Assembly: GCA_964347865.1 (NCBI GenBank)
Contig: CAYGAC010000044.1
Location: forward strand, 105,206 to 169,205
Direction: 5' to 3'
Source: an uncultured Thermoplasmatales archaeon
GTDB taxonomy: Archaea; Thermoplasmatota; E2; DHVEG-1
DNA: 64,000 nucleotides
Numbering within the stretch: position 1 is the stretch's first letter; each line of letters starts with the position of its first letter. Shown here one piece after another: positions 6,914 to 54,184 of this stretch. A model generated the notes under the pieces. It was not told the origin of the DNA and did not search any database. It saw only the letters and a list, made by a program, of their open reading frames with translations. The position numbers and the translations under genes were made by a program.

Positions 6914-7160
6914 ATAACTATCACTAAATTCAATAAACTGAAATTTATTTATAAATACCTCCTATTTACATTAAATTTAATATTCTTTTATGATATGTTG
7001 AAATAACAAAAAGCATTCACCAAAAAAGAAAAATTAAAGTATTAAATTACAAATGTTGTAAAAAGTAAGAATTAAGTTCAAAGTAATAGAATTTATAAGT
7101 AACATTTAAATCATTTGCGAAAACCTTATATTACCTTTACTTTTTGCTAACTTGGGGGCT

Positions 7161-7243
7161 GTAGAGCTTTAAAGAGAGTTGTTCATTTTTCATTCAATCT
7201 CACTTTACCATCCTTTCCTCCTCTCCTCATAGAAAAGCTCTAC
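7161..7243. repeat. stem-enclosed pyrimidine-core element, copy A (10-bp stem GTAGAGCTTT/AAAGCTCTAC enclosing CATCCTTTCCTCCTCTCC)
   Basis: A perfect inverted repeat at 7161-7170 and 7234-7243. The enclosed loop carries the core shared with copies at 9869-9930 and 51206-51266. Confidence 0.5.
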
Positions 7244-7320
7244 CACTCTAAAAATTTATTATTATTTCGTCTCTTATTAAAATTATAATAATGAGTTTTT
7301 AAAAATTGATATATAATGTA

Positions 7321-9665: not shown

Positions 9666-9868
9666 TTTTTATTATAACATATCATTCACTAAAAAATTTA
9701 TTGTTTTAATACCTTCGATGAAATAATTAAAATTAAAAAGTTAATAAATATAATTTAACTTAATAATATAATTAATGGAATTTCTCCATGATATTAAAGA
9801 ATTTTTATCAGTTATAAATAACGAATGTTGCAAAAAATTTATATACTATTTATGTATATTTTCATAAT

Positions 9869-9930
9869 AAGGGGGTCAATTTTTTTGAAAATGATTCCTA
9901 TTACATCATTTTCCTCCCTTCTGACCCCTT
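9869..9930. repeat. stem-enclosed pyrimidine-core element, copy B (AAGGGGGTCA ... TGACCCCTT enclosing CATCATTTTCCTCCCTTC)
   Basis: Inverted repeat with a one-base bulge. Same loop core as copies A and C. Lies in a divergent intergenic region. Confidence 0.45.
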
Positions 9931-10126
9931 TATATATTCAAATTTTTTTAATATAAAAAAGGATTTAACAGATTTTTAAGAACAATATATTCACACATTT
10001 TAAATTTCGCTATTTTGTTAATTAGAATAATTTACCTTTTACTAATTAAACGAACTCTGATTTGCTCTTTGACCATGGTATTTAAATAGATAACTTTATA
10101 ACAGGGACTCTGATACGGCGTGAGAA

Positions 10127-10378
10127 TTGGGTGTAAATATGATTAACGCGTACATTTTATTAATGATGCAAACAGGAAGTTCGGAAAAAGCTATATCGGA
10201 GATGAGAAAAATTGAAAATGTAGAAAAAATCTCGGTTGTTGCAGGAGAATATGATATAGTTGTAAGGGTACGTGTAAAAAGTCTAGAAAAACTATTGAAG
10301 GTAACAAATAAGCTTCAAATGATAAATGGTGTGAAAAAAACAACAACTCAAGTAATAGAAAAAGAAATATCACTATGA
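10127..10378 (+). CDS. stand-alone Lrp/AsnC-type ligand-binding (RAM) domain protein
   Basis: 83 aa, INAYILLMMQTGSSEKAISEMRKIENVEKISVVAGEYDIVVRVRVKS, which is a typical RAM fold. Its stop overlaps the next start, implying translational coupling. Confidence 0.6.
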   Translation: MGVNMINAYILLMMQTGSSEKAISEMRKIENVEKISVVAGEYDIVVRVRVKSLEKLLKVTNKLQMINGVKKTTTQVIEKEISL

Positions 10379-18327: not shown

Positions 18328-19512
18328 TCACATTACTTTATGTTTAAAATCTTGTAGAATATTCATAAAATTTATAAATCCATCATAAGGAGCGTCATAG
18401 GGGCTAAAATATGCATGAACATTACCATCTTCATATCCTTTAGTAGAAACATAATATAGATGGTCAGACGTTTGAAGTAACCGCCAAGCATGTAATAAAT
18501 CCTCATTGCCATGGTCTCTTAATTTTTGTCCAATATTTTTTAATTCATTGAAGCATGCAATTTGCATATCATTGCCAAGCCAAGTAGATACATCACGATC
18601 TTCATCGGCCCATGAAATTGCCCAAGGGACATCAATATCACCGACTGTTTCATGTCTTTCAATTGCTTCATCCACAGTGACAAAATCAAGATTTCCTTGA
18701 CGTAAAACTTCCTTAGGGAGATTCTTGATAAAATCAAAAATACCTGTTTCAGTCCATTGATGTTCTCCAAATGTTTCATAATCCATAAATAAATTGATTA
18801 TTTCTCCTTCACAATGGGACATCCAATGAGCATATTTATCAGCTGTTAATGGGAATCCTGGCCAATCACGTGCTGAAAATCTGAATCCTACGTCATCACT
18901 TAATTTATAATTTCGTAATAGAACCTTAAGGTCAGCATTAATTGGTTTGTATAAAAAATTTGGTGAACGCCATCCTAAAATCTTTTCTGTTCCCTCAGTA
19001 ATAATTCCCTTATATCCTAAATCTTCTATTTTTTTTGCAATACGATTATCGTAAATTGCTTCAGTGTTTCTAAAAACTTTAGGTTTACAACCAAATATTC
19101 TTTTAATCATTCGGTTATGCATTTTTACCTGATCTTCAAATTCATCTAAACTTTCAAATAATGAAGATAATGAATGAAAGTAAGTTTCTTCAATTAAATC
19201 AACAGCACCTGTGTTATGCAAGTCTTTAAAACTATCAAGAACTTCTGGTACAAATCGTTCACAATATTCAACAAATGTTCCAGTTATACTAAAAGATATT
19301 CTAAATTTACCATCAAATTCACGTATCAAATCAAGTAATAAATTGTTTGTAGGAAGGTAGCATTTCTTTGCTACTTTTTCAAAAATCTGCTGGTTTAGTT
19401 TGTCATTAAAATAGGTAGAAAAAGATTCGTTTTTTTCTCCAATATTAAAAACAGAAAAACGGTTTAATCTCATCGGTTGATGAACTTCAAAATAGAAACA
19501 TACTGATGTCAT
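18328..19512 (-). CDS. GH57-family alpha-glucan-active enzyme (alpha-amylase / branching-like)
   Basis: GH57 N-terminal signature CFYFEVHQP. Short form at 394 aa. Sits within the glycogen locus. Confidence 0.65.
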   Translation of the reverse strand: MTSVCFYFEVHQPMRLNRFSVFNIGEKNESFSTYFNDKLNQQIFEKVAKKCYLPTNNLLLDLIREFDGKFRISFSITGTFVEYCERFVPEVLDSFKDLHNTGAVDLIEETYFHSLSSLFESLDEFEDQVKMHNRMIKRIFGCKPKVFRNTEAIYDNRIAKKIEDLGYKGIITEGTEKILGWRSPNFLYKPINADLKVLLRNYKLSDDVGFRFSARDWPGFPLTADKYAHWMSHCEGEIINLFMDYETFGEHQWTETGIFDFIKNLPKEVLRQGNLDFVTVDEAIERHETVGDIDVPWAISWADEDRDVSTWLGNDMQIACFNELKNIGQKLRDHGNEDLLHAWRLLQTSDHLYYVSTKGYEDGNVHAYFSPYDAPYDGFINFMNILQDFKHKVM

Positions 19513-20621
19513 TATGTAATTCCTCTATAAACATCAATTGTCTTTTCTGCAACTCGATCCCATGTAAATAATTCAATCTCTTGTTTTGATTGTTTACTCA
19601 TTGTTTTTCTCAATGAATCATATCTTAACAAAGCTATAACCTTATTTGCCATTTCATCTGTATCCCAAAAATCAACTTTTAAACAATTACGAAATACCTC
19701 AGATACACCTGCAGTTTTTGAAACGATCGTTGGAGTACCAGCAGAAATAGCTTCTAGTGCCGTTATCCCAAATGGTTCACTCACAGATGGCATAATATAG
19801 ACACTTGAAATTTTGTATATATGCTTGACTTCTTCTTCAGTAAGTTTGCCAGTAAAAATAACTTTATTCGAGATTCCAAGGTTAATTGCTTGACTTATTA
19901 GATCTGGGAGCATATCTCCGATTCCTGCAACAACAAATCGAGTGTCCTCATGTTCTAAAATTTTTTTTGCTGCTTTTAGGAAAAATTCTGGTCCTTTTTG
20001 AATAGTTAGTCTGCCTAAAAATAAAACAAGATTCTTTTTTTCACTTTCTCCAATTGGATATACAGCGTTATGTACAACAGTAATTTTATTAGGATTTATA
20101 CCATATTTTTCAATGATTACTCTTTCTGTGAAATGACTGACTGCAATTATTTTATCAGCTTTTTTCATACCTTCTTTTTCAATGTTTATAAACCAATCAT
20201 TTGGATACAACCAACCGGATCTATCATATTCAGTTGAATGTACGGTAAGAACAAGAGGGATGCCCATTTTTTCTTTAAGTGCAACTCCTGCTTTCATTGT
20301 TAACCAATCATGGCAATGTATAAGATCATACTTTCCTTTTACCTTTTGTACCAGAAGATCGTTATATCTGTAAACACTTTCAAAAAATTGACCTGCTAAT
20401 TCTTTATTTCCTGGACGATCGTAAGGGAATATTTCAGTTTCTCCAACTTCTTTGATTACTAAATTATCCTTATCACTACTTGGTTTATGTTTAGTTTTAG
20501 GCATGTAGAAATCTATAGATATGTTTTTATCTGCAAGACTTCGGGTAAGTCCATAACAATGGGTTCCCAAGCCACCCACTTTAAAAGGTGGGTATTCCCA
20601 TCCAATCATCGCGATTTTCAT
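19512..20621 (-). CDS. glgA: glycogen synthase-like glycosyltransferase (GT5/GT4)
   Basis: N-terminal MKIAMIGWEYPPFKVGGLG (K-x-GGL motif of starch/glycogen synthases). GT-B C-terminal domain. Upstream SD TTGGTGAGGAAAT. Confidence 0.6.
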   Translation of the reverse strand: MKIAMIGWEYPPFKVGGLGTHCYGLTRSLADKNISIDFYMPKTKHKPSSDKDNLVIKEVGETEIFPYDRPGNKELAGQFFESVYRYNDLLVQKVKGKYDLIHCHDWLTMKAGVALKEKMGIPLVLTVHSTEYDRSGWLYPNDWFINIEKEGMKKADKIIAVSHFTERVIIEKYGINPNKITVVHNAVYPIGESEKKNLVLFLGRLTIQKGPEFFLKAAKKILEHEDTRFVVAGIGDMLPDLISQAINLGISNKVIFTGKLTEEEVKHIYKISSVYIMPSVSEPFGITALEAISAGTPTIVSKTAGVSEVFRNCLKVDFWDTDEMANKVIALLRYDSLRKTMSKQSKQEIELFTWDRVAEKTIDVYRGIT

Positions 20622-20939
20622 TATTTTATTTCCTCACCAATTATCAGAGATTTTAACTGATACTTCGAATTATTATGCTAATATCATCTCTCCTTTTTAT
20701 TCTAATTCAAACTAGCATCAATTTTATTGCTATAGTTAGGCAACCCATTACGGGTAAAGCTTACTTCAATCTATAAGCTTTTCGTTTTTTTATACTATTA
20801 ACTCTAAATAACTAGGTCAAAGTTCACTTGAATGTATATTTTATAATTATGGAATATTTTTACTTATTATTTATGATATACTTTTTTAGAATATAATTTT
20901 ATCTCAAAACTAATACATAACTATCTAGTTATAAAAAAT

Positions 20940-21200
20940 TATATGTCGCTGTCACCCAACAAGATAACTTGGTTGGGTGTGATTACAAAACCATTCTAAC
21001 AATGCAGCAGTAGAGTAGTAATGTAATTCATATCGCGACAGGTGTTTGATACCGTGGTTGTCCTCTTTTTCATTTCTTGACATTTCGTCTATTTGATCTG
21101 AGAGGGACCCTAACCGATATCAATTGTCGCCTTGACCTTGCTTCTCCAATCACAAATCATGGAGCTCTTCGAATCAAGGCAATTAAAATCATGATATTAG
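20940..21200. ncRNA. candidate structured non-coding RNA (unclassified)
   Basis: Lies in a 600-nt ORF-free gap. Local GC is about 40-45% against a genome background of about 30%. Inverted repeats CACCCAAC/GTTGGGTG and GCCTTGA/TCAAGGC. No protein-like frame on either strand. Confidence 0.25.
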
Positions 21201-21225
21201 TTCTTAATTAAAGTTTCGCTCTTTT

Positions 21226-22038
21226 TTATTTATACTTGTTTATTTCGTTTCGAAGTAATAATGCTTCTTCCCTGGATTTTTCTGAAAAATTCTCTTCTTT
21301 ACCAGCATAGATTATTCCACGAGAGGAATTAATAATTGCCATTTCACCTTTGGCATTAGTCCCATTTTTTACAGTTTTTTCAACATCTCCACCTTGTTTA
21401 CCTATACCTGGAATGAGTAGAGGAATTTCTTCTCCTAAAATATTACGAATTATTTTTAATTCAGAAGGATATGTTGCACCGACGACTGCCCCACAATTAT
21501 TGTTTTTATTCCATTCTTTAATTTTTTTCGCGACAATTTGATAAAGTGGAGTTGATGATACAATTAGATCTTGAAAATCACTTGCTGAATCATTGGATGT
21601 TCTACAAAGAATAAAAGTACATTTATCTTTATATGATAGAAATGGAGTTACTCCATCTATACCTAAATAAGGATTAATAGTTACTGCGTCAGCATTAAAT
21701 GTTTCGTATAAAGTTTGAGCATATTTGTTTGCAGTATTACCGATATCATTACGTTTTCCATCTAGCACCACAATGATATCCTTTGGGATATATTCAATTG
21801 TTTTTTCTAAAAGAATTAAACCATCCGATCCAAAAACTTCATAAAACGCCATATTCAACTTATAAGCACAAACAATATCTTTTGTAGCGTCGATAATCGA
21901 TTTGTTAAAATCTAAATATGGTTGCTTACTTGATTCAATTAAAAATTGAGGCATTTTTTCTTTATCAATATCTAGACCAACGCAAAGTAAGCTACTGTTT
22001 TTATGGGAGATACCTAATAATCTTTCTTTAAAGTTCAT
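21226..22038 (-). CDS. pyrF: orotidine-5'-phosphate decarboxylase, type 2
   Basis: LCVGLDID, DGKRNDIGNT and LLIPGIGKQGGD motifs. The start was moved to the internal Met (MNFKERLLG). The longer ORF reaching 22113 would leave only 7 nt before the divergent neighbour, and its extra 25 aa are hydrophobic junk. Confidence 0.65.
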   Translation of the reverse strand: MNFKERLLGISHKNSSLLCVGLDIDKEKMPQFLIESSKQPYLDFNKSIIDATKDIVCAYKLNMAFYEVFGSDGLILLEKTIEYIPKDIIVVLDGKRNDIGNTANKYAQTLYETFNADAVTINPYLGIDGVTPFLSYKDKCTFILCRTSNDSASDFQDLIVSSTPLYQIVAKKIKEWNKNNNCGAVVGATYPSELKIIRNILGEEIPLLIPGIGKQGGDVEKTVKNGTNAKGEMAIINSSRGIIYAGKEENFSEKSREEALLLRNEINKYK

Positions 22039-22120
22039 ACAATAAAGACAAATATAAATTCCAATATAAAAAGATGCCATCCAGTTAGTTATATAATGTC
22101 TTTTCAAATACAAAATCTAA

Positions 22121-28474: not shown

Positions 28475-28537
28475 AGAGTTATAATCAGATATAGCGACGT
28501 CACATTTTAATAATAGAGATGATATTCAGCTCATCCT

Positions 28538-28702
28538 ATGAAAAAAGCTGAGAAATGCATAACTTGCGGTAAAGGACTTCTTGAACGGGGAAGTACAACA
28601 TTTCAATGCCCAACGTGTGATTTAATTATAGGGAGATGCAATAGTTGTAGAGAGCAAAGCATAGAATATGTCTGTCCAAAGTGCGGATTCAAAGGTCCAT
28701 AG
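28538..28702 (+). CDS. Zn-ribbon protein (COG2888-like), the usual upstream partner of aEF-1beta
   Basis: 54 aa and not in the ORF track. MKKAEKCITCGKGLLERGSTTFQCPTCDLIIGRCNSCREQSIEYVCPKCGFKGP*, which has four CxxC pairs. Confidence 0.6.
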   Translation: MKKAEKCITCGKGLLERGSTTFQCPTCDLIIGRCNSCREQSIEYVCPKCGFKGP

Positions 28703-28711
28703 GGGGTTTAT

Positions 28712-51046: not shown

Positions 51047-51197
51047 AAGCTTAAAACAATCTTTATATACTTATAATTAACGGCCGTTAATAAACTATAT
51101 ATAATCTATAAAATTTTGATTTAATTAAAGTAAAATTTTGAAAAAAAATACAATAGAAAAGTTTAAATATTGAAGCTGTATTAACAATTGTTAATTG

Positions 51198-51229
51198 GAG
51201 ATGTAAAACAGGGGATTTTTTTACATCTC
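51198..51229. other. perfect 11-bp hairpin GAGATGTAAAA/TTTTACATCTC nested in element copy C
   Basis: Seen directly. The loop is CAGGGGATTT. Confidence 0.4.
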
Positions 51230-51266
51230 ATCCTTTCCTCCCTTCCTCACCAACCTTTACCCCTGT
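51206..51266. repeat. stem-enclosed pyrimidine-core element, copy C (ACAGGGG ... CCCCTGT enclosing CATCTCATCCTTTCCTCCCTTCCTCACC)
   Basis: Inverted repeat at 51208-51214 and 51260-51266. Loop core shared with copies A and B. Lies in a divergent intergenic region. Confidence 0.45.
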
Positions 51267-51378
51267 ATAATTTACGTCTCCATTTATCCAATTTTTGGAT
51301 TGAATTTTAGAATCAGAAAAAACATATTCAAAAATAATTTAATATTTAATATAATATCAAAGTTAGATTTAATACAAG

Positions 51379-53922: not shown

Positions 53923-53937
53923 ATTAAAATTTTTAAA

Positions 53938-54105
53938 TTATTCGCTTATAGCTTCAGCAGGGCATTCCTCAATACATGTGCCACAGTCAATGCAATTTTC
54001 TTCATCGACTGCTGCTGTTTCATCAACTTTTATTGCTTCGACTGGACAAGCTTCTTCACATGCTCCACATGCTGTACATTTTTCTTTATCTATTGTTACT
54101 GCCAT
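53938..54105 (-). CDS. fdx: 2x[4Fe-4S] ferredoxin (55 aa, absent from the ORF track)
   Basis: Minus-strand translation MAVTIDKEKCTACGACEEACPVEAIKVDETAAVDEENCIDCGTCIEECPAEAISE*. Two CxxCxxCxxxCP motifs. Confidence 0.75.
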   Translation of the reverse strand: MAVTIDKEKCTACGACEEACPVEAIKVDETAAVDEENCIDCGTCIEECPAEAISE

Positions 54106-54184
54106 TTATTATGACCTCTTGGGACCGGATTATGGTTTTCATATTTATTTTTTATTGTTATTGAAAACAAATATACTAATTTAT

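Follow-up and report, generated by a model that had tools for sequence, protein, structure and literature searches.

A conserved non-coding RNA gene beside pyrF in an uncultured Thermoplasmatota archaeon, a probable box H/ACA pseudouridine guide with an unusual third domain

Introduction

What is encoded in the long gene-free gap between a glycogen-synthase-like gene (glgA) and pyrF in the genome of an uncultured Thermoplasmatales archaeon? The gap lies in a stretch of 64,000 nucleotides (nt) of contig CAYGAC010000044.1 (GenBank assembly GCA_964347865.1, positions 105,206 to 169,205, forward strand), and this whole stretch is called the window here. An earlier sequence-only reading of the window had pointed to the gap, placed correctly between the start of glgA and the stop of pyrF, as a candidate structured non-coding RNA standing out by its guanine-plus-cytosine (GC) content. 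We report that the GC-rich part of the gap is a genuine conserved non-coding RNA gene on the minus strand, as is borne out by its conservation, by covariation and by the loss of any reading frame. The RNA represents a new family within a well-known class, with an unusual third domain; that it is an archaeal box H/ACA pseudouridine guide is given a probability of about 0.78. The coordinates of all features are collected in Table 1.

Conservation and covariation of the RNA

The GC content reaches 0.38–0.43 in 100-nt windows across 20950–21199, with a maximum of 0.45, and the island extends over about 20944–21225; the rest of the gap has 0.17–0.29 in windows of the same size and the whole window 31%, so the contrast that had first drawn attention to the locus is real. 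Comparison with related genomes, which had been proposed as a check, was done by BLASTN and with an nhmmer profile. The GC-rich part (20942–21220, about 280 nt) was found in 25 of 80 related loci and in one further copy cut by a contig end, at a nucleotide identity of 69–88%, and the AT-rich remainder of the gap could be aligned only in the three closest relatives, one block of 36 nt excepted. Wherever upstream DNA exists, pyrF lies upstream of the element, which begins about 10–160 nt (usually less than 20) past the pyrF match, and the element is absent from loci that have glgA and no upstream pyrF. The linkage is therefore to pyrF and not to glgA.

The sequence of the window and its 25 syntenic copies were aligned with MAFFT (26 sequences). 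In this alignment invariant stretches are interspersed with variable loops that differ in length by numbers not divisible by three, and RNAalifold resolved three successive domains. Covariation, another of the proposed checks, was scored on a structure of 46 pairs that we had refined, with slid partners and 500 shuffles as controls. Standard pairs occupy 94.7% of the cells (46 pairs, 26 sequences) against 34–43% when the partners are slid, changes on both sides are seen in 14 pairs against 1–5, and 0 of the 500 shuffles reach the observed value in any measure.

The RNA was assigned to the minus strand because the fold is better there (z-score −3.9, against −2.35 on the plus strand), because 32 stem cells that are G-U there would become A-C mismatches if read as plus, and because a promoter-like block is conserved on the minus strand.

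Two hairpins with the structure of archaeal H/ACA motifs

An archaeal H/ACA motif combines a lower stem (H1) of at least 7 base pairs (bp), pocket strands of 5–11 nt, an upper stem (H2) of 5–6 bp, a kink-turn or kink-loop (K-turn, K-loop) and an ANA box placed 14–15 nt from the target U, and archaeal H/ACA small RNAs (sRNAs) contain one to three such motifs (Muller 2008, PMC2377435). The first two of the three domains, hairpins 1 and 2, have the structure that defines these motifs and are referred to as motifs 1 and 2.

Motif 1 has pocket strands of 9 and 8 nt and an H2 of 5–6 bp, both inside the published limits, and its H1 is borderline: the window has 7 bp, most homologues 6 bp and a seventh pair that varies. 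This lower stem is the inverted repeat GCCTTGA/TCAAGGC, which the sequence-only reading had already noticed on the plus strand. All six listed pairs of the upper stem, that is the five of CUCCA/UGGAG and a flanking pair, are compensated (for example CUUCA/UGAAG and CACUC/GAGUG), the flanking pair being U-A in most sequences and G.A in the window. The UGA-n4-5-UGA of the loop, the A and C of the ACA box and the core guide bases GAAG/GCAAG are invariant or nearly so, and the G of GCAAG, as read from the sequence, stands 14 nt 5′ of the ACA.

In motif 2 the stems and the pocket fall within the descriptor (H1 8–9 bp, pocket 9/7 nt, H2 5 bp). Both stems covary, H2 occurring also as CCUGU/ACAGG and CCUCA/UGAGG, and an alternative register with a 7-bp H2 and a bulged C is possible. 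The sheared-pair and C-stem bases of the K-turn are invariant or nearly so, as are the core guide bases UAGGGU/AACC; the A-N-A box keeps both A in all sequences and is free at the middle base.

The K-loop of hairpin 1 and the K-turn of hairpin 2 were assigned from the consensus geometry of such motifs, together with the near-invariance of exactly the bases that it requires, and both are predicted L7Ae sites. By analogy with characterised archaeal H/ACA small ribonucleoproteins, L7Ae would bind at these two places; a uridine of 23S rRNA would be flanked by pairing to the two strands of each internal loop, and Cbf5 would convert it to pseudouridine (Psi).

Candidate target sites in 23S rRNA

No rRNA was found within the window or in the related loci. 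The rRNAs searched for targets were E. coli rrnH, a haloarchaeal plasmid rRNA operon and 120 metagenomic large-subunit (LSU) loci recovered by the archaeal/eukaryal sarcin-ricin-loop signature, about 30 of which contain archaeal 23S rRNA that is mostly close to full length. None of the 120 loci shares a gene with the window or the related loci, and none carries the RNA. Every U of the full-length archaeal LSU rRNAs was scanned, with 300 shuffled guides as the control.

For motif 1 the top LSU site is GGCUUGC-UA-CUUCGA, for the guide of the window and for the consensus guide alike. GCAAG pairs with CUUGC and UCGAAG with CUUCGA, giving 5 + 5–6 Watson-Crick pairs and leaving U-A unpaired, and shuffled guides equal this score in 1–6 of 300 trials. 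The target uridine aligns with E. coli C2496. Since P. abyssi positions 2549/2588/2603 minus 92 and yeast positions 2826/2865/2880 minus 369 both give E. coli 2457/2496/2511, the site is that of P. abyssi Psi2588 and of yeast Psi2865. The former has been seen in vivo and is made in vitro by motif 1 of Pab40 (Pf7, HgcG), and the latter is guided by snR46. From this complementarity motif 1 most likely targets a uridine of the peptidyl-transferase ring, at the 3′ end of helix 89, that corresponds to E. coli 2496. A single homologue (L074) has GCAAA for GCAAG and would pair with the UUUGC variant of the site that some archaea have. The searches of E. coli and haloarchaeal rRNA gave nothing convincing, because E. 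coli has C2496 in place of U and halobacteria have CCUCGA.

Motif 2 probably addresses a second uridine of domain V, for which two candidate places emerged. The first is the A loop, GGUUGU-UC-GCCC(U), where the uridine would be E. coli U2555, or U2554 with three unpaired bases, with 5–6 + 4–5 bp; U2554 is the equivalent of yeast Psi2923, and on this A-loop reading the rRNA is expected to have GGUUGUUCGCCCU. The second is GGUU-UA-GACC at E. coli 2586, with 4 + 4 bp, a position that carries a modification in Haloarcula and to which motif 2 of Afu-4/Pf7 has been assigned; this sequence is conserved across the sampled archaeal rRNAs and hence gives little discrimination. The distance to the ANA box is exactly 14 nt for 2586, 15 nt for U2554 (UNN unpaired) and 16 nt for U2555. 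No recurrent 16S rRNA site was found for motif 2. Helix 69 was also considered by eye and rejected for this motif: the 5′ guide fits with 5 bp beside U1917 and the 3′ guide does not fit.

One metagenomic locus, L113 (PVBE010868000.1), with flanks of 32% GC, stands out: among the 120 LSU loci sampled its 23S rRNA gives the best match to all three modules of the sRNA. The matching sequences are CUUGC-UA-CUUCGA, UGGGUGUGCAGCAGCACCCAA and GGUUGUUCGCCC, about 100–165 nt upstream of the sarcin-ricin loop in 23S domain V. The locus may come from a relative of the organism of the window, with which, as with the related loci, it shares no protein gene.

Domain 3

The third domain is a three-way junction of the stems P1, P2 and P3. 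Lacking a K-turn, a pocket and a correctly spaced ANA, it is not an H/ACA guide motif. P1 and P3 hardly vary in their paired bases; P3 is the inverted repeat CACCCAAC (20953–20960) / GTTGGGTG (20972–20979) of the plus strand, which had rightly been noticed near 20952–20985, and its 8 listed pairs form in 26 of 26 sequences. The plus-strand GCAGCAG (21004–21010) had been counted as a further helix and turns out to be the apical loop of P2, invariant and reading CUGCUGC on the minus strand. P2 itself could not be scored on the MAFFT alignment; when the homologues are folded singly most of them form P2 from quite different stems, such as AUUACA/UGUAAU, GCAGCAUUCUCC/GGAGAGUGUUGU and CAUCAUCUCU/AGAGAUGAU.

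In 22 of 30 archaeal LSU rRNAs sampled, helix 91 has the loop GCAGCAG (E. coli 2529–2535), to which the CUGCUGC of P2 is antisense. In L113 only, the P3 strands CACACCCA and UUGGGUG are in addition antisense to both strands of the helix 91 stem (UGGGUGUG...CACCCAA), and UGGGUGUGCAGCAGCACCCAA is the helix 91 sequence that the pairing of domain 3 would require and that L113 contains. If motif 2 is read on the A loop, the three modules address E. coli 2489–2503, 2522–2542 and 2549–2561, and helix 91 stands between the candidate sites 2496 and A loop. The conserved loop of domain 3 may be pictured as pairing with the loop of helix 91. The fuller proposal, which sees in domain 3 an accessory module for rRNA binding joined to an H/ACA guide with two motifs, is put forward tentatively and in our estimate is unlikely to hold. 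It is treated as a lead since the P3 matches depend on each other, a single proxy rRNA is involved, the clustering test is weak and the topology bars a canonical pocket. Antisense clustering along the LSU rRNA was significant for some proxy rRNAs only and is not relied upon. An accessory antisense domain of this sort is not known to us from any archaeal H/ACA RNA.

Domain 3 was also tried as a third bipartite guide, for which UGGGUG-UG-CAGCAG in L113 scores highly; this was rejected, as the 5′ element lies in the apical loop of P2 and the 3′ element at the base, and as no ANA follows 14–15 nt downstream. Examined by eye in the LSU sequences sampled, the conserved single-stranded segments of the domain have no complementarity to helix 69.

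Promoter, ends and family searches

Between the pyrF stop and hairpin 1 the block CGAAA(C)nTTAATTAA has invariant positions in the 26-sequence alignment and a constant spacing to hairpin 1, its TATA-like centre lying about 28 nt upstream of the first base of the hairpin. The minus-strand block GCGAAAC-nUUAAUUAA fits the archaeal consensus of a transcription factor B recognition element (BRE) followed by a TATA box, and it is a putative promoter from which an RNA of about 240 nt would be transcribed on its own. The 5′ end was placed near 21180 by the spacing from this promoter, and the 3′ end near 20940 because conservation stops at GCGACA (20944), after which a run of U6 follows in the window. 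The oligo-U tract could act as an archaeal terminator; a run of at least 4 T occurs within 60 nt downstream in 18 of 27 homologues (the window counted), so the feature is not universal. A scan for sigma-70 promoters and intrinsic terminators gave nothing above shuffles, with models that are bacterial and inapplicable to archaea.

Rfam, also among the proposed checks, was searched with 4227 families at the gathering score, and the RNA had no match in the whole window or in 13 homologous loci, neither to the signal recognition particle (SRP) and RNase P families nor to any other. At E ≤ 10 an insect long non-coding RNA was the sole hit in the region, and a chance one. The covariance model of HgcG (RF00064) had no match in the window at the gathering score or at E ≤ 10, and none at the gathering score in the 13 homologues. 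A tRNA/tmRNA scan found none. An invariant 16-mer of the element had 10 matches in viral contigs, all by chance, and an archaeal 16S signature had none there.

Table 1. Features of the gap between glgA and pyrF, in positions of the window
Feature	Position	Strand	Sequence or remark
Gap	20622–21225		604 nt, between the start of the glycogen-synthase-like gene and the stop of pyrF
glgA (GT4/GT5 glycogen-synthase-like gene)	19512–20621	minus	369 aa
pyrF	21226–22113	minus	stop borders the gap
Putative archaeal promoter	21204–21219	minus	BRE-like GCGAAAC, then TATA-like UUUAAUUAA
Whole predicted sRNA	about 21180 to 20940	minus	about 240 nt
H/ACA motif 1	21125–21180	minus	
Motif 1 H1	21180–21174 / 21135–21129		GCCUUGA / UCAAGGC
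Motif 1 5′ pocket strand	21173–21165		UUCGAAGAG
Motif 1 H2	21164–21160 / 21148–21144		CUCCA / UGGAG
Motif 1 K-loop	21159–21149		UGA-UUUG-UGA-U
Motif 1 3′ pocket strand	21143–21136		AAGCAAGG
Motif 1 ACA box	21127–21125		preceded by G
H/ACA motif 2	21043–21123	minus	
Motif 2 H1	21123–21115 / 21054–21046		UUGAUAUCG / CGGUAUCAA
Motif 2 5′ pocket strand	21114–21106		GUUAGGGUC
Motif 2 H2	21105–21101 / 21066–21062		CCUCU / AGAGG
Motif 2 K-turn	21098–21097 facing 21071 (G), 21070 (A)		GA facing nnU-GA
Motif 2 K-turn, C-stem	21096–21095 / 21076–21075		UC / GA
Motif 2 apical hairpin			GAC / GUC
Motif 2 3′ pocket strand	21061–21055		ACAACCA
Motif 2 ANA box	21045–21043		
Domain 3, three-way junction	20944–21040	minus	
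P1	21040–21035 / 20949–20944		UGUCGC / GCGACA
P2	about 21030–20980		long hairpin; invariant loop CUGCUGC at 21010–21004
P3	20979–20972 / 20960–20953		CACCCAAC / GUUGGGUG; variable loop; CACCCAAY/GUUGGGUG across homologues
ACA after P3	20952–20950		sequence runs ACA-GCG-ACA
Oligo-U tract	20933–20943	minus	UAUAAUUUUUU, read from sequence; could be a terminator

Weighing of the guide reading and its rivals

Several points weigh against the identification as an H/ACA guide. None of the Rfam H/ACA families, HgcG (RF00064) included, matches the RNA, and domain 3 is not explained by the H/ACA model. In most homologues the H1 of motif 1 is, at 6 bp, shorter than the 7 bp that the descriptor asks for, and the ANA spacing of motif 2 depends on the register (14, 15 or 16 nt), so that the rule of 14–15 nt holds in some registers only. 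The guide duplexes are short (9–11 bp), and five homologues with the 5′ guide UAAGAAG have only 4 bp on that side. Complementarity was computed on metagenomic archaeal LSU rRNAs of unknown affiliation, so that the sequence of the window lineage's own rRNA at the candidate sites is one that we infer, and the halobacterial type of rRNA, reading CCUCGA, has one A-C mismatch. The sites of motif 2 are not significant singly, shuffled guides equalling them in 24–81 of 300 trials. A generic clustering test on five single-stranded segments was weak, and with the consensus sequence it was not significant.

Part of these points would suit a structured RNA that binds L7Ae without being a guide, for instance a regulatory or scaffold RNA or a processed element of the pyrF 3′ untranslated region, whose K-turns and ACA triplets would be no more than look-alikes of H/ACA motifs. 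The constant position of the RNA next to the pyrF stop codon speaks for such an RNA, as do the roughly 40% of its length (domain 3) that have no H/ACA feature, the motif 2 and clustering results and the silence of the Rfam H/ACA families. On the other side two hairpins independently have a pocket, a 5-bp upper stem, a K-loop or K-turn and an invariant ANA at 14–16 nt, the stretch from the pyrF stop to the RNA contains a conserved BRE/TATA-like block, and the top rRNA site of motif 1 is a known H/ACA-guided pseudouridine. We consider an RNA of this kind improbable, and the H/ACA guide is preferred.

A divergent SRP RNA or RNase P RNA, which the sequence-only reading had offered as examples, can be set aside almost entirely. 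The size of about 240–280 nt and the GC contrast are like those of such RNAs in AT-rich archaea, and archaeal RNase P RNA also has K-turns. Both were nevertheless excluded by the absence of a relevant Rfam match, at the gathering score in the window and 13 homologues and at E ≤ 10 in the region, and by the architecture, a covarying series of three domains with no long-range closing helix of the P1/P4 or helix 5 type. No CR-I/CR-V motif of RNase P and no helix-8 motif of SRP RNA was visible in the alignment, as judged against the consensus motifs. The RNA is missing beside glgA where pyrF is missing, which is uninformative on essentiality.

A small protein gene or a decayed pseudogene, also suggested earlier, is scarcely credible: open reading frames (ORFs) of 43–53 codons are indeed open in several homologues and the GC is at coding level, but the 43-codon ORF of the window (21083–20952, minus; another of 44 codons lies at 21077–21211, plus) has its start codon in only 11 of 26 sequences and is stopped after 5–13 codons in four. 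No single frame is kept by the conserved blocks GTCGCGA, CTGCTGC and CACCCAA, each of which is read in two or three frames among the homologues; the indels are non-multiples of three and conservation tracks helices with compensatory changes, all of which argues for an RNA and not a protein.

Comparison with known guides

The RNA invites comparison with Pab40 (Pf7, HgcG; RF00064) and Afu-4, the three-motif H/ACA sRNAs of Thermococcales, Methanococcales and Archaeoglobus. Like Pab40 (234 nt, three motifs) it is predicted to be a multi-motif archaeal H/ACA RNA, of similar length, the best match of its motif 1 is the same rRNA position that motif 1 of Pab40 addresses (P. abyssi Psi2588), and motif 2 of Afu-4/Pf7, at P. 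abyssi 2678 = E. coli 2586, shares one of the two candidates of motif 2 here. Unlike these RNAs it has no sequence or covariance-model similarity to HgcG/Pab40/Pf7 that could be detected, and, whereas motif 3 of Pab40 targets helix 69, its own domain 3 is non-H/ACA and has no complementarity to that helix. The RNA was kept out of RF00064 on account of the covariance model without a match and of the differing third domain, and the likeness to Pab40 would be one of mode of action rather than of demonstrated orthology.

In yeast the eukaryotic equivalents of 2496 and of A-loop position 2554 are modified with the H/ACA guides snR46 (25S Psi2865) and snR10 (25S Psi2923), which have no sequence relationship to the RNA described here. 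They have the hairpin-hinge-hairpin-tail form with H and ACA boxes, lack a K-turn and bind Nhp2 in place of L7Ae.

Haloferax volcanii sR-h45, likewise euryarchaeal, has two stem-loops that guide Psi formation in regions of 23S rRNA that are central to its function (PMC7075261, PMC5029457). Its targets are 1940, 1942 and 2605 in H. volcanii numbering; it is likened to our RNA by description only, and it has no third domain. By our own reckoning these targets presumably correspond to helix 69 and to roughly E. coli 2580. The atypical Cbf5 guides sR109, sR136, sR148 and sR563 of Sulfolobus and Pyrobaculum work with duplexes down to 6 bp; domain 3 has the opposite pattern, with stems and ACA and with neither K-turn nor pocket. 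Catalogues of H/ACA guides exist for a small number of cultivated archaea, namely Pyrococcus, Methanocaldococcus, Archaeoglobus, Haloferax, Sulfolobus and Pyrobaculum, and in the literature none was found described for uncultured sediment Thermoplasmatota.

Locus context and other observations

The 369-aa GT4/GT5 glycosyltransferase encoded by glgA heads a glycogen gene cluster (GH57, debranching enzyme). It is 72–90% identical to genes in 80 metagenome-assembled genomes (MAGs) or genomes labelled Thermoplasmatota, Thermoplasmatales or Thermoplasmata (for example SG8-52-3 and SM1-50), and the window was assigned to that lineage on the basis of these matches. One related locus, L031 (JAUVXD010000032.1), is a 2.2-kb contig binned as 'Acholeplasmataceae bacterium' whose glgA is 88% identical to the archaeal gene of the window, most likely a binning error in that MAG.

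The 36-nt block at 20754–20789 (minus strand UAGUAUAAAAAAACGAAAAGCUUAUAGAUUGAAGUA), between the sRNA and glgA, is kept at 81–89% in seven more distant loci and is probably the promoter or 5′ leader of glgA.

The gap had been called the longest gene-free stretch of the window. When ranked with ORFs of at least 90 aa it is the second-longest, 9666–10374 being longer; that region holds an Lrp/AsnC-like fragment at about 10137–10374 (plus), assigned by eye, and because of this plausible small gene the 604-nt gap is in practice the longest and the earlier statement essentially right. Two other gaps with raised GC contain short ORFs below the 90-aa cut-off, again assigned by eye: a zinc-ribbon-like ORF with four CxxC pairs at 28475–28711 (plus) and a 2x[4Fe-4S] ferredoxin-like ORF at 53923–54184 (minus). 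In view of these short ORFs the three regions were not taken as further RNA candidates.

Three other intergenic gaps (7150–7265, 9865–9945 and 51175–51295 in plus-strand coordinates) have a strong stem closing a large loop with a shared CU-rich motif. CAUCCUUUCCUCCYCU occurs with at most 3 mismatches in two of them and at two weaker sites, against 0.74 matches expected by chance, and the third gap carries a less exact form, CAUCAUUUUCCUCCCUU. Fold z-scores of −5.3 and −6.1 were obtained for two of the three. The minus-strand reading of the motif, GGAGGAAAGGAUG, combines a strong Shine-Dalgarno sequence with an AUG, after which ORFs of 2–16 codons only follow. It could be a repeated small-RNA or leader-peptide element, and no Rfam family matches it at the gathering score.

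Significance

If the guide function is confirmed, the pseudouridine at E. coli position 2496, common to Pyrococcus and eukaryotes, would be extended to another archaeal lineage, which would back an ancient origin of this modification of the peptidyl-transferase centre, and the family would provide an annotation model for a gene that is now missed in about two dozen genomes. Domain 3, with its loop antisense to helix 91, makes it possible to test whether an H/ACA RNA can carry an additional element for contact with rRNA. Should that pairing be true, and motif 2 be directed at the A loop, one RNA would clamp about 75 contiguous nt of the nascent peptidyl-transferase centre, modifying both sides of it, and would be a tether or folding chaperone besides a guide.

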